The position numbers were made by a program, and so were the translations under genes. Positions 2,440 to 58,397 of a DNA stretch of 58,397 bases are shown piece by piece (position 1 is the first letter of the stretch; every line of letters starts with the position of its first letter). The stretch is from Folioceros fuciformis (lineage: Eukaryota). The DNA lies in contig JBNGIO010006294.1 of NCBI GenBank assembly GCA_049999805.1, positions 65,711-124,107 on the forward strand, in the 5' to 3' direction. Below the pieces are notes generated by a model, which saw only the letters and a list, made by a program, of their open reading frames with translations, was not told the origin of the DNA and searched no databases.

Positions 2440-2449
2440 CCCGTACAGC

Positions 2450-20127: not shown

Positions 20128-20597
20128 TCCACTAGCGGGCTTCCTACCATCTCCAATTCCTCTTTCCCTCTTCCAGTCGCACCGGAGCGCTCTCCGCCTC
20201 CATTGCGTGTTCTTGCGTCACCGACACACACTGCCGATCGGCTTGGGAGGAATTTCGGAAGCTAGCGCACTCAACCTGGCGCTGTGTTTTTGTCGCCGCT
20301 GGAATTATCCATGCAGCAAATGCCCGACCATGATCTTGGCCGGGGCAGGTGATCTTCCATGGAGAGAGCATTGTGTTAAATCTGCTTGTCGAGTGCAGTC
20401 GCTGCCTCCAGACACACTCGCTGTGCTGGATCGTAGTCGGATTCCCGAGGAAATTCCAAATGTAAGACACAATTTTGGTTTGGTCGAGCAGAATCTCCAG
20501 ATTTAGTCGGTCTACCAGCGTTTGCCTGCATGTACATACTTAATCCAGGGCCTTTTCTACAAGTCCCTCTCCTGTGAGTGAAATCGAGAAGAGTTGT

Positions 20598-20990
20598 GTT
20601 CCATTGCCACTTCCGATTCTTGCTATCCTGCAGTTCATTCTGGTTTGCACACACACATCTGCTCATTCCGTTCAATTGCCATTTCCAATTCTTGCAGTAT
20701 CCGGCAGTTCATTCTGATTCGCACACACATCGGCTCAGTCCTGATCTTGAAGGCAAACACTATACTATGACACTCTTTCCTCCTCTTCGCAGAAAGCGCG
20801 CTCGAGCGGTCTTGCAGGGTTCAATCTTCGGACGTCGAGTCTTTGAGAAGGATTGTGTTCGATTGCCACTTCCAATTCCTGCAGTATCCCGCAGTTCATT
20901 CTGATTCGCTCTCGCAACTGCACATATCCTGATTCTGTAAGACAAATGCCGTACCATACCGCTCTTCCCTCCGCTCCGCAGAGAGCGATC
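20598..20990. repeat. Three degenerate direct copies of a ~70-130 bp unit
   Basis: ATTGCCAYTTCCRATTCYTGC..TATCC.GCAGTTCATTCTG at ~20603, ~20675, ~20862; copies 2 and 3 extend to ...CTCTTYCCTCC.CT.CGCAGARAGCG. Confidence 0.75.
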
Positions 20991-35787: not shown

Positions 35788-37059
35788 ATGGTGCGACGAG
35801 AGGAGGAGGACTTTGAGGTGGCGTGGGAGGTGAAGGACTGGTTCAAGCTATGGGTTAGCCAAGTACCGGTGGAGCGGCTGATCGTGGGGCCGTACGAGGA
35901 GTATGGGGATGACGCAGTTCCGTTGTGCAGTGAGTGTGAGGAAGTTTGTGAATGGGTGTACTTCTCCAGGTATGGGTCGAGCCAGATCACCTGCCAATTG
36001 GCATGGCAGGATGTGGTGCTGGGAATGTTAGCAGTTCGGGAGGGAGGATTTTTGTCAAGGTTGGTTTGGGGCTGCTGGCTGATTGTTTCATTTGATTCAG
36101 GATCTGCTGTTGTGAATTACAGGAACCAGGGTGTGATCGGGGAACGCATTGTGTGTGGGAAGTGCGTGGATCTAGTTCAGCGTCGGCCTGGCACTAGGCA
36201 GTGGAAGACGTTTGTCAGGGAAGGGCTGGAGCAGCACATGGAAAACTGTAGAAAGCTGTCGAACCAAGCTGGACAGCTTCTTGTAGGAGCTCCTGAACCT
36301 CGCCGCTTAGCTCCTTCCCAAGCTCCGCCTCCACATGGCCTCGAGCTTGCCCTAGTCCCCGTGCCTTCTCCTGCCCACCTTCCCCCTCAACGTCCTCTTC
36401 ACCTTGCTCTAGCGCCGCCCAAACTTCCTCTTGCCCAACAACCTCCGCCTCTTAACCTTGCTCTAGCGCCTGAACTTCCTCTTGCCCGACACCCTCCTCC
36501 TTTTCAGTTTTCTCTAGCGCCTGAACTTCTTCTTGCCCAACAACCTCCTCCTCTTCAGCTTGCTCTAGCGCCAGAAGTTCCTCCTGCCCAACAACCTCCT
36601 CCTCTTCAGCTTGCTCTAGCGCCTGAAGTTTCTCCTGCCCAACCTCCGGCAGTGCCAGGATTCCTCGAAGCTCCCCTTACTGCCCAACCCCGACTTGTTC
36701 TCCAACCAGGCCGAGGACCTACCAGAATGGACAACTCAGAACTCAAGCGGTACGAAGCAATGGAGGTCAGGAATCGAAGGTGGGCAGATCAGCTGCGGCC
36801 CATTATTTATGGCTACTTTGACGTGGGTCCTGACCGGGAATGCACAACACTCGACATTATGCTGCGCTACAGGGAGCTTCACAACCACGATGCTGATCCC
36901 ATCAATCTCCCTTCCTTGTATAAAATTCTCCCAAGGCTGGGCTTCGAGGTTGGGCCGGCTTCCAAATCACAACCTGGGAATCGGGCGTATCGAAAAGTTG
37001 GTGGTCTGGCACCGAAGTCTGTGTACGCGCTTCCCGAATCCGAACTCCTTGATATGTAG
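35788..37059 (+). CDS. Orphan protein: CxxC..CxxC finger, Pro-rich repeats, C-terminal winged-helix-like domain
   Basis: Stop-free 423-codon frame from ATG 35788; likely in-frame intron 35970-36122 (GTATGG...TTACAG, 153 nt) giving ~372 aa. Confidence 0.6.
   Translation: MVRREEEDFEVAWEVKDWFKLWVSQVPVERLIVGPYEEYGDDAVPLCSECEEVCEWVYFSRYGSSQITCQLAWQDVVLGMLAVREGGFLSRLVWGCWLIVSFDSGSAVVNYRNQGVIGERIVCGKCVDLVQRRPGTRQWKTFVREGLEQHMENCRKLSNQAGQLLVGAPEPRRLAPSQAPPPHGLELALVPVPSPAHLPPQRPLHLALAPPKLPLAQQPPPLNLALAPELPLARHPPPFQFSLAPELLLAQQPPPLQLALAPEVPPAQQPPPLQLALAPEVSPAQPPAVPGFLEAPLTAQPRLVLQPGRGPTRMDNSELKRYEAMEVRNRRWADQLRPIIYGYFDVGPDRECTTLDIMLRYRELHNHDADPINLPSLYKILPRLGFEVGPASKSQPGNRAYRKVGGLAPKSVYALPESELLDM
36403..36645 (+). 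repeat. 51-bp coding tandem repeat (LALAPEVPPAQQPPPLQ) x~5
   Basis: Units start 36403, 36457, 36508, 36559, 36610. Confidence 0.9.
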
Positions 37060-37308
37060 ATCAGGGTTCTCCTACTGGAGAACCCTGGTCCGTTTCTGTG
37101 CTGGCCTATTGACAGCAATCTCTTCTCCCGGCATTTAGCGCACGAGAAAGATAATCCGCTTTTTCCATTTTCCTACGACCTTGGACTTTTGTACATAAAC
37201 CCTGAAGTNNNNNNNNNNNNNNNNNNNNNNNNNNNNNNNNNNNNNNNNNNNNNNNNNNNNNNNNNNNNNNNNNNNNNNNNNNNNNNNNNNNNNNNNNNNN
37301 NNNNNNNN

Positions 37309-38859: not shown

Positions 38860-39930
38860 CAATTGTAGCTTGTCCCGATGGATCTCTAGGTCATCTCTCC
38901 ATGCTGGCTCCATGTTGTGGATGAGTGTAATTCTCCATGCTGGCTCCGTGTTGTGGATGAGTGTAATTCTCCATGCTGGCTCCATGTTGTGGATGAGTGT
39001 AATCTTGAACAAAATACTCGTCTATCAAGTCTATGTTGTCAATTTTGATGTTGTGGAGTAGGCAACATGCATATGTTAACTCACCTAAATACTTTACATT
39101 ACATCGCCATGTTTTCCTGCCTAATATACCCCAACACCCTTTCAAGTCACCAAAGGCACACTCAATCACCATTTTGGTGAACGAGTATTGGAATGAAATT
39201 GGCATCAATTGGACAGAGGCTTGTTCCTACAATAGGCACAACCAACCATGGCATGAGTGTGTATCTTGCATCCCCTAGCATATATTCTCCTATCTCATAT
39301 CCTAGAATATCTTCTTTAGGCCCATTGAGGCGAGTCTCTACAACTATTTCTCGGTAAAAACCAGAATTGATCAGAATTGTACTATCATTGACCTTTCCCG
39401 ACCAACCAGTCACTACATAAGGAAGCGTTTGTCAAGCATTGTACTATCATTGACCTTTCCCGACCAACCAGTCACTACATCAAGGAAGCGTTTGTCAAGC
39501 CCTACCACAGCTTGCATAGCCATAGTTAGGCCCTTATGGCCATACCAGATGAATTTTTCCTCCCCTGCAAGTGTTTCTATGAAGCAATGAGTTGCATCAA
39601 TGGCTCCTAAGCAATTAGGGAAGCCTTGTTGTTCTCAAAATCCTTGCTTTATGATCTCCTATTGGGTTGAGTTTGGCCATTGTAGATGGTGCCTACCACA
39701 CTTTAGAAGTGCCAAGATGAAATGCCAAGTACACTTGAATGCTGTGGGAGCCTCAATTCCAAATTGTTCACCCATAGTTTTAAATGAATCGCCGAAAGCA
39801 AGGCAACAAAGAGCAATTGCAACTTGCTCTCTGACGAGCATAATTCTTCCCACAATCTAAGAGAAACTTGGCAGTGGATTGCAAGTCATCATTCACTAGC
39901 CCACAAATGTACTCAAAAGTGGTAGGAGTA
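38860..39930 (-). pseudogene. Decayed PIF/Harbinger DDE transposase (DDE_Tnp_4 / HARBI1-like), 5' part missing
   Basis: TPTTFEYIC, REQVAIALCCLAFGDS, GFPNCLGAIDATHCFI, GWSGKVNDSTIL, YMLGDARY, VIECAFGDLKGCW, ACCLLHN; frameshifts, ~62-bp duplication at ~39377-39500 and 36-bp x3 repeat at ~38896-39003. Confidence 0.88.
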
Positions 39931-39999: not shown

Positions 40000-42900
40000 C
40001 ACTCGAACCAAATATTGAAGAATAATTGGAAAAAAATTTTGAAGTTCTCGAGGCTAAGCCAACTGACACCTAAGGACTTCCAGCAAAATAGTCGGTACGC
40101 AGGGCGTGAAGGTGCAGACCATGCCCTGAGCTCATGAGCTAGGCAACGAGTCAGGGGACAACAAGCAGTTCGAGGGTGGATTTTTCTGGCAAGCAGAGTG
40201 AACCTAGGCATGAGGGCTTCGTGCGGTTGTGATAAGGTAGCCATGAGCGTGACACCGCGATTGAAGGCTAGGCAAGCACACAATGTCACTGTGAGCATAT
40301 GAGCTGCAACGCCACCAGGTACAACAAACAAGCCAGGTTTTAAGGACCCTTTTTAGTGACCACATTGCCTAGGGGAACTACAGCGTTGTCGAGGTAGCCA
40401 TAAGGTCCCTACCATTACAGGCTAGGCAAACACATAGTGTCACCCTGAGCTCATAAGCTACAACTCCACCAAGGACAACAAACAAGCTAGGTTTTGAGAA
40501 CCTTTTTTGGTGACTAGATTGCACAAGGGGAATTATAGCGCTATCAAGATAGCCATGAGGTCCACATGATTACAGGTTGGGCAAGCACACCGTGAGCAAC
40601 ATATAGGCCTTGCTGAAGAGGACGGCCAGGCAAATTGCTACCAGCCTACGTCCAAGTAAGTCTTGGGCAATTTGACAAGAGCAAACAGATATGTCTGATG
40701 ACTCTTGTTTCTTTTGTGTTCTTGGTGCTCACTAGTTGCTACCACTGACCATTGGCTATGCATGTCGCAGCTTGGCACATGTCTCCAACTTCAGTACCCT
40801 GCAAGGTTGATGACTCCCTTCCCTCTAGAAACCTTCAATCTTGGTAAGACTTGGTGCTTAGTTCCTTGTTTCTTTTCTTTCCTCTAGGTTTTGGGGCTAG
40901 CACATCTCGTATGTTGCTCTGTTGTTGACCTTGCCCATTGCTAGCGCACTCAGGGTTTCAATGGCTCCAAAGCCGACGTTCAAGGAGGCCCGAAACGTGA
41001 AGCGACAAGTCAAAGCTCAGCAACAACGGGTTTTGCTGATCAATGCCTTGTTGAAGGACACACCCACCTTCCGTGCTAGGCATTGGAACTGGCATGATGG
41101 AGCTCGAGAGTTTCGGAAGGAGGGACTGGATGTCCGCAATGAGAAGTACTTAATGGGCTTGAAGGAGAAGCTAGGAGGGGTAGAGGTGCTATGTGATGCA
41201 TTTGGCTTAGTGCACAACTAGAACATGGGTTTCAAGTGGCAAGTCACTGACACCTTGACACAGTAGGAATGGAAAAATGTAGATGACCTTGTTTACCTTG
41301 TGTATGGCAAGCACCCAAGCCGGTGCAATTCTCAGCGAGTGCCAAGCTCAATGGCACTAGGTATCCTCGTGGAGAAAAAAATGTTCAAGTGTGTAAGTTG
41401 GGCTAGCTTTGCAACGAAGACTGAGATGAAGAAGGAGGCTGAGGAGGCTAGGGAGACCAAGCCAGCAGCAGCTGTGGATGATATAGAAGAGCAGGTGAAG
41501 GTCAATGGCGATGACAAGTTGCAAGACCAAGTGCTTGAGGCTGGGTCGCTTTGGGGAAGGAACCCTCAACCAGCATTGGCCCTGTCAGATGATCGCAGAG
41601 CCGGAAGAGACTGTGCTCTCCAACCCCTTGCAAAAGTGGTGATGGCAGGGCTGTTTTTGTTGAGCATGATGATGGCCTCGATGACGTTGCAGACTTTGGT
41701 GGAGTTGACTCCACATCAAAGGCTAAGGACTAGGGAGATTGCCCAGCACCAACAGATACAAGCGAAGGCACTGTAGCGAAGGGTATGCTACCTTCATTTT
41801 CCTTGGGGTTTTAGTAGGGGTGTGGTTTGCAGAGCTTGTGTGGAATTCAGTGGCTGGCTGGCTGGCTTCAACAAGTGGGCTGTTGTAGATGCATTGGGCA
41901 ATCGTTTTTACCACAATAATCCAGGGTTTCGTCCCTAGTGTTTGCTGCCACTACGAAAGGGTGGTGAGCAAGAACCAGCAGGTCAGTTGTCCAGGAGCTG
42001 GATTCTGCAAGGTTGCATCAAGATGCGAGGGCTAGATGGACTAGAGCTGGCCACCTGAGTTGCTGGCTAAGTAGGGTTGTTTCTGTGATATTGCCGATTT
42101 CCTCTTCCAGCTGTCATGATACATAGGGTGCTTGCCTATTGTCCTGTAGGGTTATGTGGTTGTTGGAATTCATTGCCATAAGCCTAACAACTTCCCGGCT
42201 TTGCAGGCCATCCTTGGCTCACACTAGATGTTGCAACTAAAGTGAAGGGTGAGCTTGCCTTACTCCTTGCCCAAGCTGCGGAGGAGGAGGAGGCTCAAGT
42301 AGCCCAGGCATTTGAGGAGTAGAACAAGCTAATAGCAGCACGGTTGGCTGTGGTTGATTTTGTCATTGCCAGAGTGGTAGGAGAGCAGGCACTTGACCCT
42401 CAGGTTCGTATACATCATATGTTCATTACAGCAAAATGTAGTTGCAGAAGGTTCCAAACAACCTTGACAAACCTAGTAGCGCGGTGGTTTGATGCAGGCT
42501 GAGGACGCTACGGTGGCTCAAGTGGAACACCAAGTACAATGTGTAGCAGAAGCAGAAAGTGCCCTCTAAGCATTGCAAAAGAAACACGAAGAGTTGGGCC
42601 GCAGGTGCCTTGTGGTGCACGAGTACTCAGAAAAACTTTGTCGATTGTATGGCTTGACGTTGAAAAAGCAGCCCGTGCCACAATGGGTGCCCACGCCTTC
42701 TCATAGCAAGACCTATAAACCCTAAACCCAAATAACTATTTGCTCAGTCTGTGGGAGGTAACGCTGGATTTGGTGTTCCGCGCTCATGCTTGTTTTGTGC
42801 ATTTGCTCACTACTCACTTTGTCTTGTGATTGTAGGTGGTTTTCGTGCAACGACTTTGTTTTCCTTCCCTGTGGAATAGCTACCATGATGCCTGTCTGTA

Positions 42901-43946
42901 CCAAGCATTTCAACTTGCTGTGAGTTGTCCAAGGGTTGTTTGCAGGTTGCAAGTGCCCCCATAGTGGTTGAAAGCCAAAGGGTGGCCATTCATAAGTGTT
43001 GTACCGCAGCTAGAACATTGGCAACTAGACCAGGAGCTGGAGTGGATAGGGGAGTACCATTAGCTATTGCGGGACTTCAAACACTTGAAGGATTGCTTCA
43101 CGGGAGGGGCTATGTATTCAAGTGCCCAAAATCGAGCCCGTGCATGCCAGCCATCGAGGAAGTTGCTACGTGACTCTCTAGGTGAAAGACGTGTGTCGTG
43201 TGTCTATCGTTTATGAAACTTGAGGAGTTGTTGTCATATGCTCTAACTGGTGTGTCCTTGGCTCATGTGAAGGCCCATACAGTTGCCTTCCACTCTTGTC
43301 ACTGCCAAGGCACACTCTTGGACCAACCAATGTGGAGATCACTCCTCCAAGGACAGCCCTTACTCATCACGTTAAGCCACAAATGTTAAATTGCCGACAG
43401 ATGCAAAATTATGTGCTAAACACACCCGACATTGTTGTTTCGAGGACGGAACCAGTCCCTCTCAATCAGGACGATGTTCGCACAACAGGAAACAGTGTGA
43501 CCAGGTACTTAGCGTTGACCCCTAGCAGCGTGCATGTGCAAGCAGAGGTGGAAAAGGGAGCCCGAACTGTGCTAGAGACAATGTTGGACATGCCAACCGA
43601 GCTCCCTCCTATGGACGAGTGGCTGTTAAGGGCATTTCCCTCTCAAACATTGACTGATGCAAGTGCACGGGTCGTGGAGAAGGAGCCTGCTTTCAGGATG
43701 GCGGCACCAAATCCAAATGAGATTCAAGCTGCTGGTGCCAGGTTGGCCGTGGGCAACCCACAGATCTCGGAAGCGCCTGGTGTAGCAACTGACTCTATTG
43801 CCACTGTAGGCGACAATGACGTAGTGGCCCACTGCCAAAGATATGCCGTCTGATGGCAAAGTGGCAGTGGACGGTGATGTGGAATGGGGCGGCGTTGTGG
43901 CATTGGACGGTGATGTGGAATGGGGCGGCGTTGTGGCATTGGATGG
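40000..43946 (+). mobile_element. Decayed unclassified element (left part; continues at 57532-58397 beyond the nested copia insertion)
   Basis: Stop-riddled + frames 40961-41780 and 42925-43946; 18-bp repeat GAYGGTGATGTGG resumes in register after the outer copia. Confidence 0.5.
40120..40600. repeat. ~156-bp degenerate tandem repeat, ~3 units
   Basis: AGRTAGCCAT anchor at 40235, 40392, 40547; shared GGCTAGGCAA.CACA and ACAACAAACAAGC.AGGTTTT. Confidence 0.8.
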
Positions 43947-44139
43947 TGTTTAGCTATCTAATGTACACAAAGTGCACATAGGTGCCTAGAATAAATTACA
44001 TTGATAAGAATACCAAGTGTCTTATATACAAAATTGTTCCAAGGGTCACGACCATTTACTTAATCTAAATATAAGTAACTAACAACTAACATTTGGTTCG
44101 TTTATAAGTAACAAACCCTAACGGGGTTCTACTTTAACA
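43947..44139 (-). repeat. 3' LTR of outer copia
   Basis: Matches 57334-57526 with 7 substitutions in 193 bp by manual comparison. Confidence 0.95.
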
Positions 44140-44585
44140 CACCCCCATAAACAGAGCACGCTAGTTACCTCGGCAAAGTGACAGACATGGCGGGCTCACT
44201 GGTACAGTGTCTAGTGCTTTGCTCCTTTGTAATTGTCGTCTGCCTGCTATACCAATATTGGCATGAAGAACAAAGACGGAGCAGGCGGAGAGCACGCACA
44301 ACATCCAGCCAGCCATCGCATGGCCACCAGAGAAGCTCACGACGGAGCAACGGTGGCAATTCGCGAGCTGGGAGTGCCTGCTTCAGATCTAGCTTTCTGT
44401 GAGCAACACTGATGGCACTTCGGCGCCCCACCCTGAGGATGACGAGCTGCAGGCGCAATTTGGATTCGCCACTGCGAACCCACTACCACAGGATAGCTAA
44501 GTGACCTGTCAGTTGCAACATGCGATTATGTTGAGCTTATTACTTCATCCACCATACTCTGCAGCTTGGTAGTGTAACACAGGAG

Positions 44586-45296
44586 CTAGGGCAAAGGATC
44601 AGGGCAAGCCTGTAAGCCCATTGCCTCCATATGCCGGTAGTGCTTACTAGCAGGTAGATACTTCGTCAAAAGGTCTACTGTGTTTAGGTCTGTGGACACA
44701 TACTGAATTCTGACATGTTTTCGTTCCACAGAGTGCCTCATAAAGTGGTGGTGTACTTCGATATGCTTGGTGCGCGCATGGAAACGTGGATTGGCGGTCA
44801 TGGCTATCGTGGACATGTTATCACATTAGATTGTAGTCGGCTGTGACTGTTGAAAGCCAAGGCCTCCCAGAAAACAACGCTCCCATACAACCTCCTTGGC
44901 ACCCTCAATTAAGGCTTTGTACTCGGCCTCAGTTGATGATAAAGCAATAGAGGCTTGCTTCTTGGAGTTCCAGTGAATGGCAGCATTATTCAGAGTGAAA
45001 CAATAGGCTGATATGCTTCTCCGAGCATCTGGGTCGGTAGCCCAGTCTGCATCGGCATACCCACACAAGGTAGGCTCAGTATTTTGCCCCTTGAAGCATA
45101 AGCCATGAGTCATGGTGCCTTTCAAGTAGCGGAGCACACATTTAACCGCACTTCAGTGAGCCTGTCCAAGGTTGTCCAGAAATTGAGAGACAGAATTGAC
45201 TGCATACTGGATATCCCTACGAGTCCAACAGCTGATGTAATTAAGGCAACCCATGGCATGGCGATACAGAACCTGAGCCATAGCCTGGCGTTCCGC
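44586..45296 (-). pseudogene. Outer copia pol, 3' part (end of RT, RNase H)
   Basis: YRHAMGCLNY..TRRDIQYAV, LRYLKGT, GYADADWA, WNSKKQ..LSSTEAEY, FHARTKHIEV, DLLTK. Confidence 0.92.
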
Positions 45297-45558
45297 TGTG
45301 TAAATATGATAATGGTGTAAACCAATTGAGTATTTATCAATTACATTGTTGTATATGTTAATATTTTCATAAAGACATAAGTGAGTATTTATTGTAGCAA
45401 CTAGACTTATTCTAGTAGCCAAGAGACATGGATCTTTGGCCTAGGGACGCAACCCTAATGAAAGGGTAAGCTATTTAAATAAAACTATATATATACACAT
45501 ACTATATAACCAGATATATTAAAACTCTAAGTAATAACTCAACGCCCTATCTTCAATA
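45297..45558 (-). repeat. 3' LTR of inner copia
   Basis: Matches 52279-52516 with 5 substitutions and two 1-bp indels over ~240 bp; right end inferred from adjacent PPT. Confidence 0.9.
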
Positions 45559-45813
45559 CTCCCACTTGTTGATTATTGCATAGTGTACAATCTTCTTCTT
45601 TGCGAGCACCTTGTGAAGACTGCAGCCGTTGAGCTCGAGTGTGTGTGTACAAGGTTGACAACCCCAGGCAACCGGCCCCAACAAAGCGGAATGGAACAGC
45701 TTTGTGTGAAGGCAGTCCCTTACAGATGTGCCATGAGCATATTAGCGTGCTTTTACGTTCCCGTCTTCATTCTGTCACGAGTCCTGGAGCGTAGACTGAG
45801 GTGCCTCGCCAGG

Positions 45814-46792
45814 ATGTCTTCATATTCTAAGTCTGCCGATCTGAGTCCACTTGCAAAACGCCGTGTCTACCAGAGGGATGCTCTAGGCAGGTCCGCACCT
45901 GCGCCTAAGACAACTGCCTACTCCGCATGAGCTGAAGTGAAGAGCGTAGCGGCTCGGGCATCAAACGGAGCTGCAACTTCTAGCGGCACTGGCTGCCCTA
46001 GGGGCAGGCCTAAAGGAACAACAAAAGTTGTGCTTGAGGAGCGGCGCAGTGCAGCTGCATCAGTCGCTGCAGGCGAGGCCAAGACCTCAGCAGCAAGAGC
46101 TGAGATGGGAGGTCCACCCCGTCGTCCTGCACCCCAGCAGCCTGTAAGCCAATTGTTTTCTCGAGATACATTTGATGCCCGTAGGTGTGAGAGAGGTGAG
46201 TTTCGCTATGCCTCTAGAGAACCACACCCTCCTGCACCACCCTGATTTCCCGAGCCCAAAGGTATTTTGTCAGAGACGAGAATAGTCACCCTTGGCTCGG
46301 CTCGGTGGCCAGGAAGCCCAATTTGGTACAAGTGCATAACCACAGGTCTGAAGATGATACGAGTACGTGTCCAGAATTTCCCAAGCTTTAACAATCACGT
46401 CGTCAGTTTCTACAGTAAGTTGCCTGAATCATTTGTGGCAATCTTCCCTGTTGCCTTATTTAGCTTAAACAAGCTCATTTCTGCAGCCCCCGTTTGGATC
46501 CTTGTGTCAGTACCTAACCATGTTTGTGTGCTTGCTCCCACTCACTTCAACAGCGTCTGAGGAACGCCTTGATGAAGAGGAGAGCAAGGAGACCAAGGAG
46601 AGGATCTCCTACAAGGAGAGAAAGGCCAGAAATTCACCTCGCTCTGGTGGGGAGTCTTTCAGTTTGGACTCTGTTAGACCTGCCTCATGGGAGCAAATTT
46701 CAGACTCTCCCTCTTCAATCAGCATGAGATCTCCTATGGATTATGGCAATGATGGTTCAGTTGATGACAATAACGATTGGGGCTGCACCTAG
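45814..46792 (+). pseudogene. Antisense, intron-containing accessory ORF of inner copia (AT-hook protein, ~279 aa, two TGA lesions)
   Basis: ORF-track segments 45583-45930, 45937-46245, 46267-46560 share one frame separated by single TGAs; GTAAGT donor 46415, CTAAC branch ~46514, CAG acceptor 46553; phase-1 join to 46554-46792; PRGRPK motif. Confidence 0.65.
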
Positions 46793-46801
46793 CTTTATAG
46801 G

Positions 46802-49800
46802 CTAGGGTTTGGTACGTAGGGCCTCTAGGTAGCCTTCATGGCTGCCCATGCCCAGACTTCTCATATGTCTGTAGTGTGCATCCCTACTGAGGGGCTTAGT
46901 GAACACATCTACTGGATTTTCTGCGGTTGGTATATATTCCAGCATGATTTGTCCTGACTTGATGAGGTCCCTGATAAAATGATACTCCACCTCCACGTGC
47001 TTCGTGCGAGAGTGGAATACAAGATTTTTAGCCAAGTTCATTGACACCTGGTTGTCCGTCTTTATCATGGTACATGTTGGAAGTGGCAGCCCAAGTTCCT
47101 TGAACATCAATTTGCACCACGCAATCTCCTTGGCTGCAGCTGTAAGAACTCGATATTCAGCCTCGGTGCTTGATGTAGCAACGGTGGGTTGCTTTTTGCT
47201 GGACCAGCATATAGGTCCTCCTGCTACCATAACGACGTACCCTGAAACTGATCTCTGTGTATCAACATCTCCTGCGTAGTCAGAATCTGTGTATACGTCC
47301 AGCTCTAGTGGCACACCAGAAATGTGTCGGAACTTGATGCCTATGTTTGATGTTCCTTTTAGGTACCTAACAACTCTCTTAACCCCTGTCCAGTGGGTCT
47401 GACCACGATTATCAAGATATTGCGAGAGTACGCTAGTGGTGTAAGCAGCATCAGGTCTTGTGGTGTTGGCTGCATAGATTAGTTTCCCAACACCCTTCTT
47501 GTAGGGGACTGACCTCATTTCATCTATGTCCTTTTGTGTTTCAGGACTCATCGACTTGCTAAACTTCAGTCCAAAAGGCAATAGCATCGCTGCTGGTTTT
47601 GCATCCTTCAAGCCAAGCTGTTCAGCACACTCTAACAGATATTGAGGCTGTGTGAGAGATATAGATCTGTTTTTCCTATCCCTCTGGATAAGGATTCCTA
47701 GGCAGCTCTGAAGTGCTCCAAGGTTAGTCATTTCAAACTTGGTAGATAGCAGCTTGTTAACTTTTGGGATGAATGTGGGGCTATTACAAGATAGAATCAG
47801 ATCATCAACGTATACTGCGAGATAGCACACAACATCACCAGATCTGTAGACGTACAGGTTGCTGTCTGAAACACATTTCACAAATCCAAGTGCACGCAGT
47901 TCTTCGTCCAGGACAGCATTCCACTCTAATGCTGATTGCTTTAGGCCATAGAGGGTTTTTATAAGGCGCAAGACATGATCTTCCTTGCCCTTTACTTCGT
48001 ATCCTGCAGGCTGCTGCATATAGATCTCTGTGTCCAACTTGCCGTGTAGAAAAGGTGTTTTCACATCAAACATATCTAGCTCATAGTCTTGATGTGCTGC
48101 CAGGGCACAGATTGTGTGAAAAGTGGCCAACTTCATCACAAGAGCATATGTATCGAAATAATCAAGACCAAGCACTTGCGAAAAGCCACGAGCTACGAGT
48201 CGTGCTTTGTACCTGTCAAAAGTTCCATCAGCCTTTACCTTCAGTTTGAAAACCCACTTACAAGACAACACCTTGCGACCAGGAGGTAACTTGGCTAGTT
48301 CCCAAGTTCCATTTTTGATCAGCGAATCATATTCTAATTGAATTGGCTTTTTCCACTCTGCAGCATCAAGACGGCTAAGAGCTTCTTCATAGGGTTGAGG
48401 ATCGATAGGATCCAGGGAAGTAGCTGCATTAGCTGTTGGTTTTCTAAAGTCCTGTGACTGGTAATAATTTGGTGCTCGTCTTTCTCTTGCAGGATAACGG
48501 CGCTCAAGTTGTGGTGGATCTTCAGGATGTGGGGGTAAAAACTCAAGTTCACCCTCTGCATCGCTAGCATCGTCCTCAGCATGATTCTCATCAATGTCTG
48601 GATCGGGGTCTGGTGGATCAGGTTCAGGTAAAAGGTCAGCTGGTTCAGGTTCTGGAGGAGGTTGCTGCTGCTCATCTTCAGCTTCATCTGCTTGCTCTTG
48701 ATCATCGTGTTGCTGTTGTTCTTCCCCCCCTGTAGGAGCAATCTCCTCAAGAGCAGAATCATAAAAAACAGTGACGTCAGGCAAGGTTGAAAGATCAAAG
48801 TCCTCCTGTGTGGGAGTAGCTCCCACTTGCTGCCAAAATCGACCTTCATCAAAGGTCACACTGCGTGCATAGACCACCTTGTTCTGAGGTACATCATATA
48901 GCTTGTAGGCTTTTATACCTTCAATATACCCTAACATAAGGTATTTCTTGGCTTTGGGAGCTAACTTAGTCCTCTGGACCTTAGGGATGAAGGCATAGGC
49001 GATGCATCCGAAAGTGCGAAGATGTTGGATAGCTGGCTTCCTTCCATAGAAAGCTTCAAAGGGGGTCTATCTTAGCACGGCAGTTGTGGGCAGTCTGTTA
49101 CATAGATACACAGCTGTCATAAGGGCTTCAGCCCAGTAGGATAGTGGCAAAGAGACTTGGTGAAGCATAGAGGAGAGCATCTCCTGTAAGGTCAAGTTCA
49201 AGCGCTCGGCAACGCCATTCTGTTGCGGCGTATACACAACTGTAACTTGTCTACCTATCCCTTCGTCCTTGCAGTAAGTTTGAAATTCATTGGATGTGAA
49301 TTCTCCACCATTGTCTGAACGTAGGACTTTCAGCGATTTCCTTGTCCATCTCTCTGCAAATTTCATGTAGTCTTTGAACAAAGAGAAACATCCACTTTTA
49401 GCTTTTAAGATGTAAGCCATAACAAATATCGTCTTGTCGTCTATGAATGTAAGGAAGCATCTGCCACCACCAATTGAGGGCTGCGAGAGTGGCCCACATA
49501 TGTCAGTGTGCACGAGTTCAAGCACTTCTGAAGCTCTGTTAGGAGCCTTGTTCTTGAAGGCTGCTTGATGACGTTTGGACAGCACACAGGCTTCACAGAG
49601 AGGTAAGGGTGGGGAAAACTGCCAATTTTACCATCACTGTATAGGTCACTAGCAGCTAGTTTTTGCAACTTTGTGCTGTGAGGGTGACCTAAGCGTACAT
49701 GCCATAACCTAGCCTGTTCTTCCTGCTTTGCAGCTGTCTCAGGCGACTTTGAAGCTAGGCTAGCATTGGCATGACTGATGTGAGTGTGCAATCTAAACAG

Positions 49801-51154
49801 ATCATGGTCTGATGATCCATAGGCTAGGATTTTATGATGATCAAAAGCATCTATAATCCTACATTATGTCGGAGTGAAGAGGATGTGACTATGATTATTC
49901 ATATTCAACCTCCTAACAGAAATCAAGTTTCTGGTCATTTCAGGCACATGATACATGTCTGTAAGCAAGAGCGTGATGCCTGAAGGAATTGGCAGCTTGA
50001 CTGTGCCAACACCAAGGCACACAAGCTTGCTATCATCACCTAGGTAAACAAATCTGTTTTGAACTAACCTGTATGTGATGAATGAACATCTGTCAAAACA
50101 AATGTGCGCTGTTGCACCTGTATGAAGGAACCACTCCTGAATGGGTTTGCCTTGAGTATTTGCAAACAAGCATATAGGGTTAGCAAGAGGGTGAGAAGAA
50201 AACTCCCTGGTCCCTACAGTGAGGGCTGCTACCGAGCCTTGTTTGGTCACCACAACGTGTGTCTGTGAAGTGGAGTTACCCTCCTTGCGAGGTACTCCAG
50301 ACTGCTTCTTTCGACACTCAGACTCCCAATGGCCTGGAATTTGGCACCAATGGCATTTTCCAACCTTCTTGGGCTTCTTCTGTGTAGAAGCTCCTTGTGA
50401 GCTGCTAGCACTTGAGGTATTCTGTCTACTTCTGAAGTTGGGCTTTTTGCCCTTTCCTTTGTTGTTGGTGTGCAAAGCTTGTTGTTTACCAGAACGCTTA
50501 AACTGTCCTCTTGTTACTTCTTCTTGAAGAAGTGCGCCCACTAATTCTGCAAACGTGGTTTTGGGGAGGTCAACACCTGCACCCTTGGTGATTTTTCGCC
50601 CTTGTAGTTGCGAGGTGTTGAAAGAGGTCACGAAATGTGACCAAGACTCCGGGAGTGACATCAGAAAATGAAGGATGAGAGCCTGATCCCTTCACACTGT
50701 CTAGTGCTGCACTTTCAAACTTGGAGACTAGAGATCTAAAGGTAGTCAAGTGTTTTTCAATAGATTCTCCTTCTTTCATCTTCAAGTTTTGTATGTTGCG
50801 AAGTGCAGTCATTTGACTTGTGTCATCTGTTCTAGCAAACAGGCTTTGAAGCCGCGTCCGGATATTGGTTGAGGTCTTGCAACCAGAAGTCTATCTCAAC
50901 ATGTCAGTCGACAAACCACTCCGAAGAAGGAACTGTGCAGCTTCATCCTTTGTATTCCAGGTGTCGAGTGCCTTCTGTTCAGCAGCTGAAGGGGTACCAA
51001 TAATCACAAGGACTTTTGATGTTCCGCTTATCCAAGACCACAGCTGCGTATTTTGAAGTGCTCCCCGCATCCTAAGGACCCAGATGTCATAGTCTGTACC
51101 CCCGAATCTACCCTTTTCCCTAAATCCCTCCCCAGCTAGATTAGTGTCACCCAT
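46802..51154 (-). pseudogene. Inner copia gag-pol (few stops/frameshifts)
   Basis: gag MGDTN at 51154, Zn knuckle CHWCQIPGHWESEC, protease WFLHTGAT (catalytic D lost), LWHVRLGH, IN VHTDICGP/RSDNGGEF/PQQNGVAER, RT YKARLVARG/YVDDL, RH YTDSDYAG/SSTEAEY. Confidence 0.95.
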
Positions 51155-51313
51155 GTTTTGGGACTTTTCTCAGTCCTCCTCACAGTGAGGATGTGATGGA
51201 TGAATTACTAATGCACCTGTATGTTCCTTTGTAGGTTAACAAGTGTGAGGATTCAGGGAAAAGCAATGATGCTACAAGTGCATCAAGGGTAGGCTGCAAC
51301 TGCAGCCTGTTCT

Positions 51314-51916
51314 TCACAGAGGTAAGATGGGTTTTGTACGCTGGTCAGCCCTGCGCAGGTTGACCAACTCCCTATCTACCTTTTCCTTTATGTTATGTTT
51401 CCTAATCTCCCAGCGATTAAAGGAATAGGTCATGCATGATGGACACGAATTTGGATACTCAAATTTATGATGCTTGTTAGTTTTTGTAGCATGCTTGCAA
51501 GCTGTCCCTCTGATTGCAGGGTTAGCAAGAAGAGCAGGCTTTAACAAAGCAAGCAATTTGAAATCCAAGTGACCAACCTGCTCCAGCAATGATTGTAAGT
51601 CCTTTGAAACAGCAGCAATTTTTTGACTTATGTTTTCAAAACGTCTGTCTACATGTCGCTATTGTGATTCTAGTCTAGAACATAAATGTGATATGCTAGT
51701 GTGCGGTGCTATGTTTGTGGTTAGGAAACCCCGAAGATTGCCTTTACCAACAATGGCAGGTTGCACATTTGGGAGATTTTGAGGAGTCCTCAGTGGAGGA
51801 ACAGGCGCATGTTGGTGAAGATCAGCAATTCTTCTTACTGCGTTCACTTGCGCACCAAGTTGTATTTGGCGATTGTGCCGTCCAGGCCGCATCTGCCCGT
51901 TCTGAGGATCAGCCAT
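51314..51916 (-). pseudogene. Extra sense ORF upstream of gag in inner copia (~200 codons, one TAG lesion)
   Basis: ORFs 51659-51916 and 51314-51589 are in the same frame, joined through a single TAG at 51661-51659 by RHVDRRFENISQKIAAVSKDLQS. Confidence 0.55.
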
Positions 51917-52278
51917 TCATTTGGCCAGAATTCTTGTATTTTAGAAAATTCCAAGAAACATTTTGTAATTCTATATGATTTTTATAAAGATATTTGCTGC
52001 TTCTGGTAGCCGTTCTAGCATGCCTGATGACATATTGCTTTGCAACAATCTGGCAATAGATGCGCTAGAACGGGCTTCTAGAAATGCAAAAATTCCTATA
52101 AACAAATCAAAAAAAATAACTACAAAAGGGTTTCTCAAACATTTTCTTGATTTCCTATTAGAAATTGTTTTCTAATAAAGAAACAAACACAAAGAACTTC
52201 TATATGCACATCTATATGTGCACAATTTAATGTGCATTCTTGTGAATGCAATCTACACCTAGCATGGCTCTGATACCA

Positions 52279-52516
52279 TGTGTAAATATGATAATGGTGC
52301 AAACCAATTGAGTATTTATCAATTACATTGTTGTATATGTTAATATTTTCATAAAGACATAAGTGAGTATTAATTGTAGCAACTAGACTAATTCTAGTAG
52401 CCAAGAACATGATCTTTGGCCTAGGGACGCAACCCTAATGAAAGGGTAAGCTATTTAAATAAAGCTATATATATACACATACTATATAACTAGATATATT
52501 AAAACTCTAAGTAATA
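52279..52516 (-). repeat. 5' LTR of inner copia (truncated by N gap)
   Basis: TGTGTAAATATGATAATGG start identical to 45297; adjacent PBS. Confidence 0.92.
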
Positions 52517-52616
52517 NNNNNNNNNNNNNNNNNNNNNNNNNNNNNNNNNNNNNNNNNNNNNNNNNNNNNNNNNNNNNNNNNNNNNNNNNNNNNNNNNNNN
52601 NNNNNNNNNNNNNNNN

Positions 52617-55600
52617 ACTAGTCAAGGGATAGCTTCATGCCTGCAACTCCTAGAGTGGAAACAGGCTTGGCAGTGTCCAGATGGAAAAGATGCAAGGTCT
52701 CTGCAATATACTTGGCTTGATGAAGCATAAGAAGAGTATCATCAAGATGGCGCACAAGTTGAACTGCGAGAACGAAGGTGAGTGCCCCAATATCCTTCAT
52801 ATTGAATTTTTGGTGCAGCATGTCTGTGACCCATGATAACAAACCTGGATCGTTTGATGCCAGGATGGCATCGTCAACATATAAAGCAAGAACGACGAGT
52901 TTACCATGCTGGGAATAGAAATATACGTTTGCATCACCAGGATTCTGGATGAAGCCAATAGATTTAAGGTACTTGTCAATGGTCTTATACCATTCCTGAG
53001 CTGACTGCTTCAAACCGTATATGGTCCTCTTGAGATGACAGACCCAATCCGGGTGCTCGGGGTCAACAAAACCTTCGGGTTGTGACATATATATGTCCTC
53101 TTCCAGTTCACCATACAGGAATGCAGTACACACATCCATCTGCTGGAGATCCCAGACATTGGCAGTAGCAAGAGCAAGGATCATGCGGATGGACTGGGTT
53201 TTTACAACAGGGCTGAAAGTTTCAGTGAAATCTATTCCGGAAACCTGGGTAAAACCCCTAGCAACGAGCTGAGACTTGTATCTGGCAATCACGCCCTAGG
53301 CATTCAACTTATGCTTGAAGACCCATTTACAGCTTACGACCTTCCTACCCTTGGGCAAGGGACACAGCTCCCAAGTATCTTTCTTTATCAAGGAATCGTA
53401 TTCGTCCTTGATGGAAGGGATCCAATGCTCGTTGTCAGCCCTAGTGATAGCCTCTGTGTACGTCTTGGGTTCTGGTTTAATAAAAGGAGGGCTATCCACT
53501 GAAAACTTAGGTTGTGGAAGGGTAACCCCAACTCTAGGACGTTTGAAATCAATGGAACAATAAGGTGGTTCTACCCATTGAGCAGGTGGGTTCCTAACAC
53601 GCTGTGGATAACGACGCTCTACAGGTGGCTCATTAACAAGTTCATCAGCAACTTCGTCGTCAGGGACATGGCCAGGTAGGTGTTCATGTAAATCTGAATC
53701 AGCAGAGTGAACAGAAAGATTGTCTGCCATTAAATCATGATCTACCTCATCCTTTGCGGCAGGAAGGTCCCGAACTTCGACTGTAGCATCATCAATGTCG
53801 GGACAAGGTAGACAAGCATCCATCTAGGCAGGGGAGGCTGCCTGTGCAGCTGGGGCAGGTGCAGGTACTGCTGGTACAGGGTTCTGCACAACTCCTTGGA
53901 TGCCAATAGGACTAACTCCTGGTATGTCATTTTGTGGAAACTCTATAGAATCGTTCAGATCAGTGAGGTCCACATGGGTGATAGTCTCTTGATCGTATGA
54001 CAGATGATCGAAATATGGCTTCGCAGGATGCACAAGCTCCTTGAAGGTCACACTCCTGGCAAAAAATGCAGTATGAGTAAGTGGATCCAGCAACTTGTAG
54101 GCTTTGGCCTCTTCACCATATCCCACAAAAATAAGTGGGCGAGCTATGTCTTCTAATTTCCTTCTCTTCTCCGCAGGGATGTATGCGTACAATGGAGAAC
54201 CAAAGACTCATAAGTGTGACAAGCTGGGCTTCCTGCGCCGAATGGCTTCAAACGGGGTCTTTCCATCCACTGCGCTCGTGAGGAGCCTGTTAAGAATGTA
54301 AGTTGCTGTAACTACCGCTTCGGCCCAGTATGCTTTGCTCAGCCCTGACCACTCTAACATGCTCCTTATCATGCCCAGCAGCGTCTGGTTACGGCGTTCG
54401 GCAACACCGTTCTGCTATTGGGTATAAGGCACAATGAGCTGGCGTACAACACCATTGTCCATCAGGAACTGGTTGAAGTGAGCATGTGTAAATTCTGTGC
54501 CATTGTCAGTTCGCAACTGGTGGAGCAAGCATCCTGTTTGCCTCTATGCCATGACTAGCCATTCCTGGAAGACCTCAAAGGTATCGGACTTTAAATGGAT
54601 GGGGTAAGTCCAAGAATATCTGCTAAAGTCATCAGTGATGGTAAGATAATACAATGCACCACCAAGGGAGGGAACATGGATCTTGTCTAAAATATCTGCA
54701 TGTACTAGTTCTAGTATCTATGATGCACGATGGGCAACTGACTTAGGAAATGGAACGTCTTTCTGTTTGGCTACAACACATGCATTGGAAAGTGGCAAGT
54801 CTTTGAAACATTTAGGCAGGGGCTCTCGATAGCAACTTAGGTTCGACATTTCTATCAACTTATCACGATTAGCATGACCTAATCTAGCATGCCATAGACT
54901 AGCCTGGGCAGACTGTGACGACTGGACAGCATGCATAGACTCAGGAGGTATGCAGATAAGATCAAACTGGTACAAATCATGAACAAGATGTCCTTTCGCT
55001 ACGACTTGACTATCCTCGCCTCGCTTCTTAAGCTCGCAACTAGTAGAAGTGAAAGTAAGGTCGTACTGATGCGAGGAGATCAGCTAGCTAACCAAAAGTA
55101 GGTGTTTGGCCATGAGCGGAACGTGCAAGACATTATCAAGGTGGAGGTCAGTGCCATCATGCAATCTAGAACGACATGTGCCTGAGCCTGCAATCTGAAG
55201 ACCTGTACGTATAAGTTCATCCCCCAACAACACCTTATCATATGTGAGTGAAGGCCAGTAGTGACTAAGCAAATTTCTGTCATTACAGATGTGGGAGGTG
55301 GCACCAGAATCTAAGTACCAACTGTGGGGAGACGAGAGAACGGAAGAAGATGCAAAACAAACCGTCATCAACAAACACAACTAGAGGTTTGTTAGTAGAT
55401 GAAGTTGCCTTGGCGACAGAGTGGGCCTCAGCCTACTTGGGCTTCTCGACTTTTCTAGCTTTGCCAGCCTTCTTTTTTCGATAGTCTCTCTCCCAATGGC
55501 CCTTGATGCCACATCAGTTGCAAGATCCAGTTTGCTTTGTGGAGGCAGAGCGAGATTGCCCTGCTCCAGAGGTTGGTTTACCTTTGGCATTCTGGCCTTT

Positions 55601-56396
55601 CGTGTAGAGAACTTTATCTGTTTTAGTTTTACCACCATGCTGGGTGGATGTCAACCTGCTTTGCTCCTCTTGCAGGAGAGCCCCAATCATGTCTACAAAA
55701 CTGATCTGGGGTGCCTGTCCTACAGCCACATAGCCTTGTCTGCTGCACGTATGGAAGCACCAAAGCCAGAAACAAAGGTCTGGTAGCTGGCAGGTAAGCA
55801 GGTAAGGAGCTGAGCAACTACGTCCAACTTTGGAAACTGTGAACCGAGGTTCAAGAGTTGAGCCCTCAGTTGTCGAAAATAAAGGACGAAGGGACCGACC
55901 TTCTTGCCTTCTTTGAGCCTCATGGAAAACAGTTCTCCACGGATAGCACACTGGGTAAGAATATTCTTAGCTTCATAAGTCTGCAACAATTGAGTCCAGA
56001 TCTCATTCAAATTTTGTAGGTAAGCTATATCGAGCAGGAGAACTTTGTCCAGGCCGCTAATTAAAACTACACGAGCGACATGATTCAGGTTCTCCCATTT
56101 TTCAATTTCATCCGCTGGAGCTATTGAGGCTGGTTTAGGAAGTGTGCCACTAACAACTCCCCACACGTGCCGAGCTTGCAGGGCAGCTGTCATGCGCACA
56201 CGCCATCCATGGAACTTGGAGCCATTAAACCTGTCACGCTTTTTAAATTCCATTGAGTAGGATGGCTGAGGTATCTCGGGCACTGGAGGAAGGGGAAGTG
56301 AATTACCCCCGCCCCCACCACCTCCAGCACCACCAACTCCTCCTACACCACCCCTCCTCCACCACCTCCACCCCCACCTCTGCCTCTTGTAGCCAT
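52617..56396 (-). pseudogene. Outer copia gag-pol, 5' part (gag, PR, IN, most of RT)
   Basis: ATG 56396 with Gly-rich start, FNGSKFHGWRVRM, decayed Zn knuckle CN*CGIKGHW, WYLDSGATSHIC, LWHARLGH, RTDNGTEF, YKSQLVARGF, YVDDAIL; many in-frame stops. Confidence 0.93.
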
Positions 56397-57333
56397 TCTA
56401 ACTTACTTTGATGAGATTATCAGGTGGTCACGGGTGATCAAGCCTATTGCACAAGGTACTGTTCTCGAACTAGGTCGAAATGCTGAGGGGAAGCTAATAG
56501 ATGGAGCGCAGAGAGAAGGACAGCAAGGGTCGGTGAAGAGGTATGGGCTGAAAGTCAGATGCCACCAGACATCATACACTGTGTCGGTTGGCGGTTAATC
56601 GCTGACGTGGGGGTGGGTGTGCGCGTCATTCTGCAGGGTCGGGTCCCGTGAGCACCTGCTGTGAGCAGGCACCTCCAATGCGAGGCGCCTCATGGCAGGA
56701 GGCGCAGGGGACGCGCAAGCTGCAAGCGCGCCCTCCTACCGCGCTAATGGCGACGCTTGAGATCTTGGCTTCTCGCGAGCAGGGGCCATCGCCTGAAGCA
56801 AATCTGTTGCTGAAAGATATGGGCTCAAATTCAATGCCGCTTGCCTCTGTGAATCGGTCACCAAATTTGTGGGCTCGTCCTGTCGATAGAGCACGGTAAG
56901 AAGGGCTGCCTCAGTGGTGTACAATCTGTAGTTGTGCACCCTTCTTGGTAGTATCGCACAATCCTGGAAGGCTCCTGACGTCTTGTTGTTTATCGATTGC
57001 AGGGCACTTGATGCGTTTGCTCGACGCAAGAATGTCCCCGTCGAGTCATCTTTGTTTCAAAATAGCATGATCTGCTGCATTGTAGCCACCAGATTCGCAT
57101 AGTGGAAGTCTTTCATTTGCTGTTATGCAGATCATAAACAATAGCCCATCTCTAATGTTGTTGTGCAGGTAGTAGGGAGGAATTTTTGACACACGACCCG
57201 GGAGCCACAAATTTGTGGCTGCTGGATTTTGTGGCCAACAATCCCTTTTTGCTACTTGCATGTACAACAATAGACTAGGATTATTGCAGACAGAAAAATG
57301 AAAAGTATATCAAAGCCTGGTGCTTTGATACCA

Positions 57334-57526
57334 TGTTTAGCTATCTGATGTACACAAAGTGCACACAGGTGCCTAGAATAAATTACATTGATAAGAATAC
57401 CAAGTGTCTTATATACAAAATTGTTTCAAGGGTCACGACCATTTACTTAATCTAAATATAAGTAACTAACAGCTAACAGCTGGTTCGTTTATAAGTAACA
57501 AACCGTAACGGGGTTCTACTTTAACA
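57334..57526 (-). repeat. 5' LTR of outer copia
   Basis: TGTTTAGC...TTTAACA, flanked by PBS and TSD GATGG. Confidence 0.95.
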
Positions 57527-58397
57527 GATGGTGATGTGGCATTGGGCGGAGGTGTGGCATTGGATGGTGAAGTGGCATCAGGCGGCGATGTAGCAAACCA
57601 GTGTGAATTGGCAAGTCGTGATGTAGTGGACAACACACTAGAAGTGCCATGTGCTGAAGGAGATGTTGCCCGATATGGAGATTTGGCAGTCATCGGTGAA
57701 GTGGCTAACGAGATGTTGTAGCTGATGGTCAAATGCTAATGGGACCAAAGGTACAACTGACCAAGTAGATGGTGTTCTAGTGATAGACAATGCCGGGGGT
57801 GGTGAATTGGACAAGGATGGTGAATTGGCCACAGATGTGCACAAATCCTCTATTGTAGAAGATGGCCAAGCAGTGGGGGATGGAATGCCCACGGGTGGAG
57901 ACTGTCGCCATGTCATGTCACCAAGGTGACCTGTGTGCCCATGGAAGAGGAAGAGGGTGTAGGGCGCCGGAGACAAACCAGGCACATAGCACAAGGTTAT
58001 TAGGAGCCAAAGCGTGGACCCCTTAAACGTAAAGGCGGTAGATCTCGAGGACAAAGCCGCTTGAGGAAAGTTCGTGTCCCGGTGGAGCAAGTGGAGCGCC
58101 CCCGTGAAGTTGAGGAGGGTGGAGAAAATATAGAAGTTGGTGACATGTTCATGGTGCTAGCTGATGAGAATCTGTAGCTCTTAGATTGGAAGAAGAAACA
58201 ATGTAAGTAATTAATGAGTAAAGTACAAGCCTTTAAATAGGCTGGGTAGTTGGGTGGTTACAACCATAAATGGTTGCAACCATAAGTAGTTGCAACCGTA
58301 AGTTGTTGTAACTAATATAACTACTAACTACCTAAATAACCCTAGGTAGATAATAATGTTTAAGTTATGAGGCCCTAATGAATAGTGCCCTAATCTA

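Follow-up and report, generated by a model that had tools for sequence, protein, structure and literature searches.

A candidate two-exon antisense AT-hook gene in the pol-3′ LTR spacer of a degenerate Ty1/copia element from Folioceros fuciformis

The stretch of DNA analyzed here, hereafter the window, comprises 58,397 nt of the Folioceros fuciformis genome assembly (contig JBNGIO010006294.1, positions 65,711 to 124,107). Within it lies a degenerate Ty1/copia element on the minus strand (45297-52516+), and in the spacer between the end of its pol gene and its 3′ long terminal repeat (LTR) a long open reading frame (ORF) runs on the opposite strand, tail-to-tail with pol. An earlier note, made from the sequence alone, had read this region as a spliced antisense gene for an AT-hook protein that is carried by the element. 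Our analysis finds an unusually open frame that has the codon composition of the element and fills the spacer; the candidate gene and the other features of the element are collected in Table 1.

The Ty1/copia element and its spacer

Pfam matches on the minus strand follow the order DUF4219 (gag), Pol_BBD (E 3.9e-20), rve (E 8.7e-09) and RVT_2 (E 2.9e-55); the DUF4219 match (E 0.0033, 17.6 bits) lies under its own 27-bit cut-off. This is the order of gag, protease, integrase and reverse transcriptase (RT)/RNase H found in the Ty1/copia class, and full-length copia polyproteins are colinear with the element over 51154-46811. As judged from its sequence, the domain order marks the element as Ty1/copia. 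Its gag-pol is decayed, with stops at 50893, 49866 and 49069 and frameshifts at ~50690-50710 and ~49600-49630. Among the 120 matches listed, the relatives of pol share 28-45% identity when long proteins are considered and 33-48% when proteins of near length are considered, and none of the matches listed from 5.8 billion proteins exceeds 48%. By these comparisons, the element is a member of a poorly sampled copia lineage.

The two LTRs (45297-45536 and 52279-52516) are 97.1% identical over 240 bp, i.e. they show ~3% divergence since insertion. The length of the LTR is unreadable from the window alone because the N gap at 52517-52616 sits where the 5′ LTR should end. In a contig from the same species, position 45558 is joined to 52617 via 19 letters, and same-species contigs from empty paralogous sites join 45294 to 52617 via 16 letters. 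The joint at 45558 therefore gives an LTR of 262 bp (45297-45558) and a pol-LTR spacer of 1243 bp (45559-46801), which agrees with the 1.24 kb that the earlier note had placed between the pol stop and the 3′ LTR. The same joint excludes the possibility that the LTR continues, hidden by the N gap, into the spacer. The paired LTRs are accompanied by a 5-bp target-site duplication (TSD; TCCGC/TTCGC, one mismatch), the right side of which is taken from a same-species contig, and by an adjoining primer binding site and polypurine tract (PPT), the latter being a weak purine tract. The primer binding site reads TGGTATCAGAGC on the element strand, which we take to be the site for the 3′ end of the initiator tRNA-Met, typical of plant copia elements.

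Starting at the LTR edge, the antisense ORF and its leader take up all of the spacer but the last 9 nt before the pol stop codon (46802-46804), a distance previously given as 10 bp. The region is thus enclosed by the two LTRs and extends from the LTR/PPT side almost to pol, which bears out its assignment to the element. No direct or inverted repeats were found flanking the spacer, and hence there is no sign of a later insertion.

The antisense frame, its coding signals and the candidate intron

The plus-strand frame of ATG 45814 encodes 200 residues over 45814-46413 and, as had been claimed, is interrupted solely by two TGA codons (45928-45930 and 46243-46245). The start proposed at ATG 45814 is indeed an in-frame ATG, but the frame is already open from 45538 and has further in-frame ATGs upstream, at 45691 and 45733; apart from the two TGAs, it stays open up to 46557. 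Over the whole 1243-nt spacer this frame contains 11 stops, 9 of which lie downstream of 46557, compared with 13 in minus-strand frame 2 and 16-22 in the four other frames.

The openness of the frame was compared with 5000 dinucleotide-preserving shuffles, each scored by the best of its six frames. With up to two stops allowed, a run of 333 codons is matched in 5 shuffles; with up to one stop, a run of 228 codons is matched in 109; and the longest stop-free run, of 123 codons, is matched in 1576. The long two-stop frame is unusual; the frame of the candidate second exon by itself is not. These figures bear on a first rival explanation, namely that the spacer is non-coding: its open frame and splice-like signals would then be due to chance or composition, and any transcript would act as an antisense RNA, e.g. 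as a source of double-stranded or small interfering RNA. Regulatory antisense RNAs of retroelements are discussed in PMC7264820. The ease with which shuffling reaches the stop-free run agrees with such a view, as does the selection of this finding out of a very large scan, which enriches chance extremes, whereas the rarity of the two-stop run among the shuffles argues against it.

Three-base periodicity is limited to the proposed exons, with chi2 values of 16.2 in exon 1 (df 6; reached by 65 of the 5000 shuffles) and 23.0 in exon 2; it is absent from the candidate intron (chi2 8.8) and from the leader (chi2 4.4, df 6). A codon model trained on copia genes ranks the proposed frame first of six in each of three tests (exon 1, the open stretch as a whole, exon 2), and a model trained on host genes does not place it first for exon 1. 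The GC content of third codon positions (GC3) is 0.44 in exon 1 and 0.51 in exon 2, with 0.44 in five copia ORFs and 0.76 in three host ORFs. Similarly, the observed/expected ratio (o/e) of CpG places the spacer (0.54) nearer to pol (0.40) than to one host gene (0.95). In these respects the frame resembles coding sequence that has decayed and whose codons are composed like those of the element, and the composition of the spacer fits the element rather than the host, although this last comparison is not strong, as only three host genes enter it.

Over 45459-45690 the plus strand is free of ATGs, whichever frame is read, and ATG 45691 is the first after a group of plus-strand TATA motifs and is in frame. 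Motifs of the form TATA[AT]A[AT] occur in the LTR at 45486, 45488 and 45503 on the plus strand and at 45495 and 45493 on the minus strand. They may mark an antisense promoter; however, TATATATA within them is palindromic and may therefore simply be the element's own sense promoter. The in-frame first ATG after an ATG-free leader, the restriction of periodicity to the proposed exons and the agreement of the three codon-model tests all argue against a non-coding spacer, an explanation that we consider unlikely.

The composition of the spacer bears on a second rival explanation as well. The region may be passenger DNA, i.e. an exon, intron and exon from a host gene or a foreign source that was captured by an ancestor of this small subfamily, that plays no role in the element and that is still open since its capture was fairly recent. 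Gene capture by plant LTR retrotransposons was reportedly treated by Jiang and Ramachandran in 2013. It is documented, with captured ORFs typically present in one or a few copies, in the available portions of PMC7264820 and PMC11963269. A retained intron would suit the capture of genomic DNA, and only few contig variants among the matches listed extend over the region. On the other hand, both GC3 (0.44-0.51 vs. 0.76) and CpG o/e (0.54 vs. 0.95) differ from those of the host genes, with the same reservation about their number, and a host-type homologue is absent among 1.84 billion representatives. We therefore find neither the host-like composition nor the homologous host gene of a transduced sequence, the homologue search being one of protein databases. 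Furthermore, ORF, leader and stop fit the spacer from one end to the other, and the first ATG is an in-frame one. Taken together, we think it improbable that the region is a passenger.

The intron signals named in the earlier note are all present in the sequence, and exon 2 ends at TAG 46792 as it had proposed. The CTAAC lies 36 nt upstream of the acceptor AG, the pyrimidine tract scores 0.71, which is among the better ones, and the candidate intron is 35% T and 45% GC, compared with 54% and 49% GC in the flanking exons. The join in the correct phase stands in part: it is open, and 46415 is the only GTAAGT donor among the frame-compatible pairs, but a total of 224 GT-AG pairs would bridge the two frames openly, and the phase agreement therefore carries little weight.

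The same stretch admits a third rival explanation, in which the antisense accessory ORF is real and has no intron. Such an ORF would end at TGA 46558 with a hydrophobic tail, or would form a single exon with a 1-nt frameshift in 46469-46557. Frame 0 is stop-free through 46415-46557 up to TGA 46558, and over 46469-46557 neither frame has a stop, which leaves room for an unspliced product or for one exon with a frameshift. In addition, the gag-pol of the same copy has two frameshifts, which makes a third plausible, and the 46414/46554 junction is a predicted one. Against this explanation, the stretch starts with a consensus donor and goes on to a CTAAC that resembles a branch site, a pyrimidine tract and a CAG; it is richer in T and lower in GC than both flanks and is without their periodicity. 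We regard an intronless ORF as quite unlikely. A same-species run guessed to be RNA (X4) yields 2 contigs, neither of which lies over the ORF, and counts neither for nor against expression.

Table 1. Features of the inner Ty1/copia element and of its antisense region, in window coordinates.
Feature	Position	Strand	Remarks
3′ LTR, inner element	45297..45558	-	262 bp, 29% GC; end from contig joint
TATA-like motifs, candidate antisense promoter	45486..45509	+	putative promoter use
Candidate 5′ leader	45538..45690	+	in-frame open, no three-base periodicity
Purine-rich tract, weak PPT candidate	45559..45569	-	reads ACAAGTGGGAG on element strand; assigned by position only
Candidate exon 1	45691..46414	+	ATGs 45691, 45733, 45814 in frame; TGAs 45928-45930, 46243-46245
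AT-hook-like core PRGRPKG	45997..46017	+	from translation; without Pfam match
Aromatic-rich segment	46285..46371	+	residues 158-186 of P0001; three short beta strands, block pLDDT 33-51 (AlphaFold2)
Candidate intron	46415..46553	+	139 nt, phase 1; GTAAGT donor, CTAAC 46514-46518, pyrimidine tract, CAG
Candidate exon 2	46554..46792	+	acidic/Ser-rich, 78 residues including split codon; TAG 46790-46792
gag-pol	46802..51154	-	3 in-frame stops and 2 frameshifts
Primer binding site	52262..52278	-	reads TGGTATCAGAGC... on element strand; abuts 5′ LTR
5′ LTR	52279..52516	-	cut by 100-N assembly gap at 52517-52616

Predicted product, sister variants and surroundings

Counted from ATG 45691, the product would have ~320 residues, with 12.5% Ser, 11.0% Arg, 10.3% Ala and 8.2% Pro. 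Its exon 1 part is basic (39 K+R vs. 16 D+E), while its exon 2 part is acidic (18 D+E vs. 11 K+R) and contains 16 Ser. AT-hooks are built on an R-G-R-P core with basic residues or proline on its flanks. This arrangement is found here in CPRGRPKGTTK, and the AT-hook-like PRGRPK of the earlier note is thereby recovered. The RGRP core is a single one, with an expectation from composition of 0.0185. Through this core the product may bind the minor groove of DNA; a related observation is that the LTR, at 29% GC, has many A/T runs. The compact aromatic-rich segment that had also been described is predicted, at low confidence, to form three short beta strands, all with a predicted local distance difference test score (pLDDT) of ~51 or less, and it is without a Pfam or PDB match. 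The idea that this segment is Tudor/Agenet-like was dropped, as it finds no support in Pfam at E<=10, in PDB sequences or in Atlas features. An Rfam match to SCARNA7 (14.6 bits vs. a gathering score of 65) was likewise rejected.

Sister variants of the region were sought in same-species contigs, the alignments of which comprise 2178 differences and 1359 pieces; the variants noted here are among the matches listed. A contig of 859 nt with 17 differences (98% identical) covers 46163-47021; in this second variant the 3′ part of exon 1 is thus connected, through the intron and exon 2, to the end of pol as in the window. What sets antisense ORFs of plant LTR retrotransposons apart from one-off transduction is their presence in all or most copies of a family. 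The family is here represented, over few contigs, by at least one 98% variant in which the region is joined to pol and by at least one variant with an internal deletion, described below. In two DNA runs from one sample, 0.79 and 0.74 of the region's sampled words are present. The depth of the X1 contigs (~8-39 over the spacer, and ~10 for contigs identical to the window) would suggest one to a few copies but was not used as a copy count, since depth is not copy number. In X3, another DNA run of the same sample, alignments to 44800-53000 show C>T at 417 and G>A at 379 places vs. 7-66 per other type of change, a pattern as in a bisulfite- or enzyme-converted methylation library, and the run could therefore reveal how this element is methylated. 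A break of an X3 contig exactly at 46553 was considered as a structural boundary and set aside as lost alignment, because C>T and G>A changes predominate in X3 and exon 2 is rich in purines.

Homologues outside the species were sought as well. The only match among the 1.84 billion representatives is P0003 (E 1.6e-5), a repetitive 1180-aa protein; the match is read as compositional or due to chance because the same 43 residues align to each of its repeat units. Two scans of metagenomes, for which the ORF product and pol served as the respective queries, confirmed 0 of 520 and 0 of 265 pattern matches. The silence of these searches about the ORF is uninformative, since even for pol the relatives do not exceed 48% identity.

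Several observations weigh against an element-borne spliced gene. The copy in the window is itself broken by the two in-frame TGAs; the 108-codon frame of exon 2 is shorter than the 123-codon stop-free run and within chance length; and part of the periodicity of exon 2 may come from a 9-nt tandem repeat (2.8 units) at 46578-46602. The splice of 46415-46553 is a prediction from sequence signals that competes with the many other frame-compatible GT-AG pairs, and the leader, the AT-hook and the intron signals are among the supports that were noticed after the fact. A single-sequence AlphaFold2 model of the product has a mean pLDDT of 42.6, with 0 residues at 70 or above. Searches of Pfam with the product give a best E of 0.17, with PF04195 and SMC absent even at E<=10, and PDB sequence searches give 0 matches at E<=10. 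Among the Atlas features, a 56-residue stop-free stretch gives a best score of 0.79 with a low recognition of 1185, and 0 of 1083 word-sharing candidates match the exon 1 product at E<=1e-3. Finally, at least one same-species variant skips 45900-46121, with one letter in between; the loss, which is not divisible by three, removes the AT-hook, and the break falls between two similar short motifs. A product that is low-complexity, orphan and predicted to be disordered, together with the abundance of GT-AG pairs able to bridge the frames, is also what a non-coding spacer would be expected to yield.

With regard to the decay of this copy, the ORF has acquired 2 stops in ~0.96 kb, compared with 5 lesions in ~4.35 kb of gag-pol. 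The ORF has thus decayed on the scale of gag-pol, which is in line with an ORF still intact at the time of this copy's insertion. Spliced and unspliced readings together, we judge it somewhat probable that the region is a decayed copy of a real antisense ORF borne by the element. Our best single explanation, which we put forward tentatively and at a little under even confidence, is a two-exon antisense AT-hook gene that is owned by the element, resides in the pol-3′ LTR spacer and has become a pseudogene in this copy.

According to this explanation, a two-exon gene opposite gag-pol would belong to the element and be copied along with it. Transcription would begin at the edge of the 3′ LTR, which is AT-rich and carries the TATA motifs, and would read inward, through a leader of ~150 nt free of ATGs, to the first ATG at 45691. 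The 139-nt intron (46415-46553) would be spliced out of the antisense transcript, and it would outlive retrotransposition because it is antisense to the genomic RNA. The product of ~320 residues would consist of a basic, Ala/Ser/Pro/Arg-rich and mostly disordered body with one AT-hook, followed by an acidic, Ser-rich tail. Its likeliest role would be in the nucleus, where it would attach to AT-rich DNA through the minor groove, the obvious target being the element's own LTR; binding there could tune transcription of the element or aid the integration complex. Transcription from the 3′ LTR, chromatin binding and an anti-silencing or targeting role, all suggested in the earlier note, would be compatible with this scheme as predictions.

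As for the surroundings, the inner element interrupts the RT/RNase H region of another, distinct copia element, located at 43870-57595 of the window. This outer element has repeats at 43870-44139 and 57334-57595, an RT at 52618-53295, a gag at 55720-56397 and a pol end near 44607, and its pol-LTR spacer is only ~470 bp. Same-species contigs of the outer element's paralogues span the empty insertion site. Exact runs of 100 N occur three times, at 15500-15599, 37209-37308 and 52517-52616, the third of which masks the outer end of the inner element's 5′ LTR and the adjoining TSD. A cluster of host-type ORFs lies at 1495-9621, in plant-like surroundings, and includes genes for a Methyltransf_4 protein (1495-2466), a Nodulin-like/NFD4 MFS transporter (5011-6501) and an FAD-dependent oxidoreductase (8251-9621), all on the minus strand. 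CpG is undepleted in the transporter ORF (o/e 0.95), and GC3 is 0.76 over the three host ORFs, in sharp contrast to the retroelements. Long plus-strand frames without a Pfam match at E<=0.001 are found at 35737-37059, 41267-41776 and 43224-43853 (440, 169 and 209 codons from stop to stop). Comparison of the window with itself reveals short tandem or dispersed repeats of 77-100% identity (2450-2686, 20586-20987, 36393-36643, 38896-39500 and 40235-40589) and no second copy of the element region within the window.

Comparison with known antisense genes

The existence of antisense 3′ ORFs in Ty3/gypsy elements of the Tat/Retand type, which the earlier note had invoked, is confirmed by the available portions of PMC7264820, PMC4093653 and PMC11963269. 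In the first two, the antisense ORFs between pol and the 3′ LTR (aORF-3R) comprise gene23 of maize Grande, those of rice RIRE2 and Silene Retand, and ORF2 of Phaseolus PvRetro13, all of them in Ty3/gypsy elements. As far as these three sources go, the function of the products is unclear and they are suspected to be nuclear or DNA-binding; the Grande product is nuclear and its gene has its own promoter. In Retand, spacers measure 2.9-6.6 kb, and 97% of clusters encode TRP28 (PF04195), according to the part of PMC11963269 that was available. The present ORF shares with the aORF-3R the position in the pol-3′ LTR spacer and the orientation antisense to gag-pol. It differs in its Ty1/copia host, in its 1.24-kb spacer, in the proposed intron and in having no match to PF04195 or to an SMC-like domain at E<=10; in addition, the spacer contains no Retand-type tandem array, the 9-nt repeat in exon 2 being the only one. 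Since neither the lineage nor the domain is that of Tat/Retand, we class the ORF as working like a gypsy aORF-3R, and not as a member of that group. If real, it would be a variant of the gypsy-type antisense ORFs that now occurs in copia, with an intron proposed.

Within copia, comparable cases are scarce. The copia-like element Osser of Volvox is reported to have a short ORF of reverse polarity, on which nothing was found in PMC6696364. In the bean survey, as far as the available text of PMC4093653 goes, 63 of 65 copia families are without an extra ORF, and the extra ORFs of the other two are sense and env-like. SIRE-type copia elements resemble the present one in having an extra ORF between pol and the 3′ LTR (same source, same portion), but theirs is an env-like ORF on the sense strand, whereas the three minus-strand frames of the present spacer hold 13-19 stops. 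The text of the REXdb survey (PMC6317226) contains none of the antisense or extra-ORF terms looked for. The statement in the earlier note that no spliced antisense gene is known in copia agrees with the open-access literature searched, in which no antisense accessory ORF of any kind was found for a copia element.

In layout, the closest functional analogues are HBZ of human T-cell leukemia virus type 1 (HTLV-1) and other retroviral antisense genes. For HBZ, the main isoform is a spliced one. HBZ is a nuclear protein expressed from an antisense promoter in the 3′ LTR (available portions of PMC7264820 and PMC11963269). The two would share a gene that lies antisense at the 3′ end, meets the sense genes tail-to-tail, is driven by the 3′ LTR and encodes a nuclear regulator. 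The differences are equally clear: HBZ is a bZIP protein while the present product would have an AT-hook only, with no kinship in sequence or domains; promoter and splicing are shown for HBZ and predicted here; and the one is a gene of an animal retrovirus, the other of a plant copia element.

As for the product, HMGA-type proteins carry AT-hooks in a basic, disordered protein with an acidic tail, and HMG I(Y) has been reported to support retroviral preintegration complexes in vitro. The predicted product is similar in its PRGRPKG core, its basic disordered body and its acidic tail. It differs in having one hook instead of three and no detectable homology, and its DNA binding is a prediction.

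In its boldest form, our explanation would describe a deep-branching plant copia lineage with an HBZ-style spliced antisense gene that is expressed from the 3′ LTR and encodes an HMGA-like AT-hook protein, which binds the element's own LTRs and promotes transcription or integration. We consider this full version doubtful; if true, Pseudoviridae would have their first example of a spliced antisense accessory gene. Since the evidence comes from one decayed copy in a poorly sampled lineage, the candidate gene is for now a lead rather than a result.

Antisense accessory ORFs have been treated as a hallmark of Tat/Retand gypsy elements, and a 2020 review of such ORFs calls, in its available part, for a search for antisense and spliced transcripts (PMC7264820). 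If the explanation preferred here is true, an intron-bearing antisense gene would have been acquired independently in copia, and the retrovirus-like layout would have arisen more than once. Moreover, an AT-hook product encoded beside an AT-rich LTR would provide a concrete and testable idea of what such genes do.

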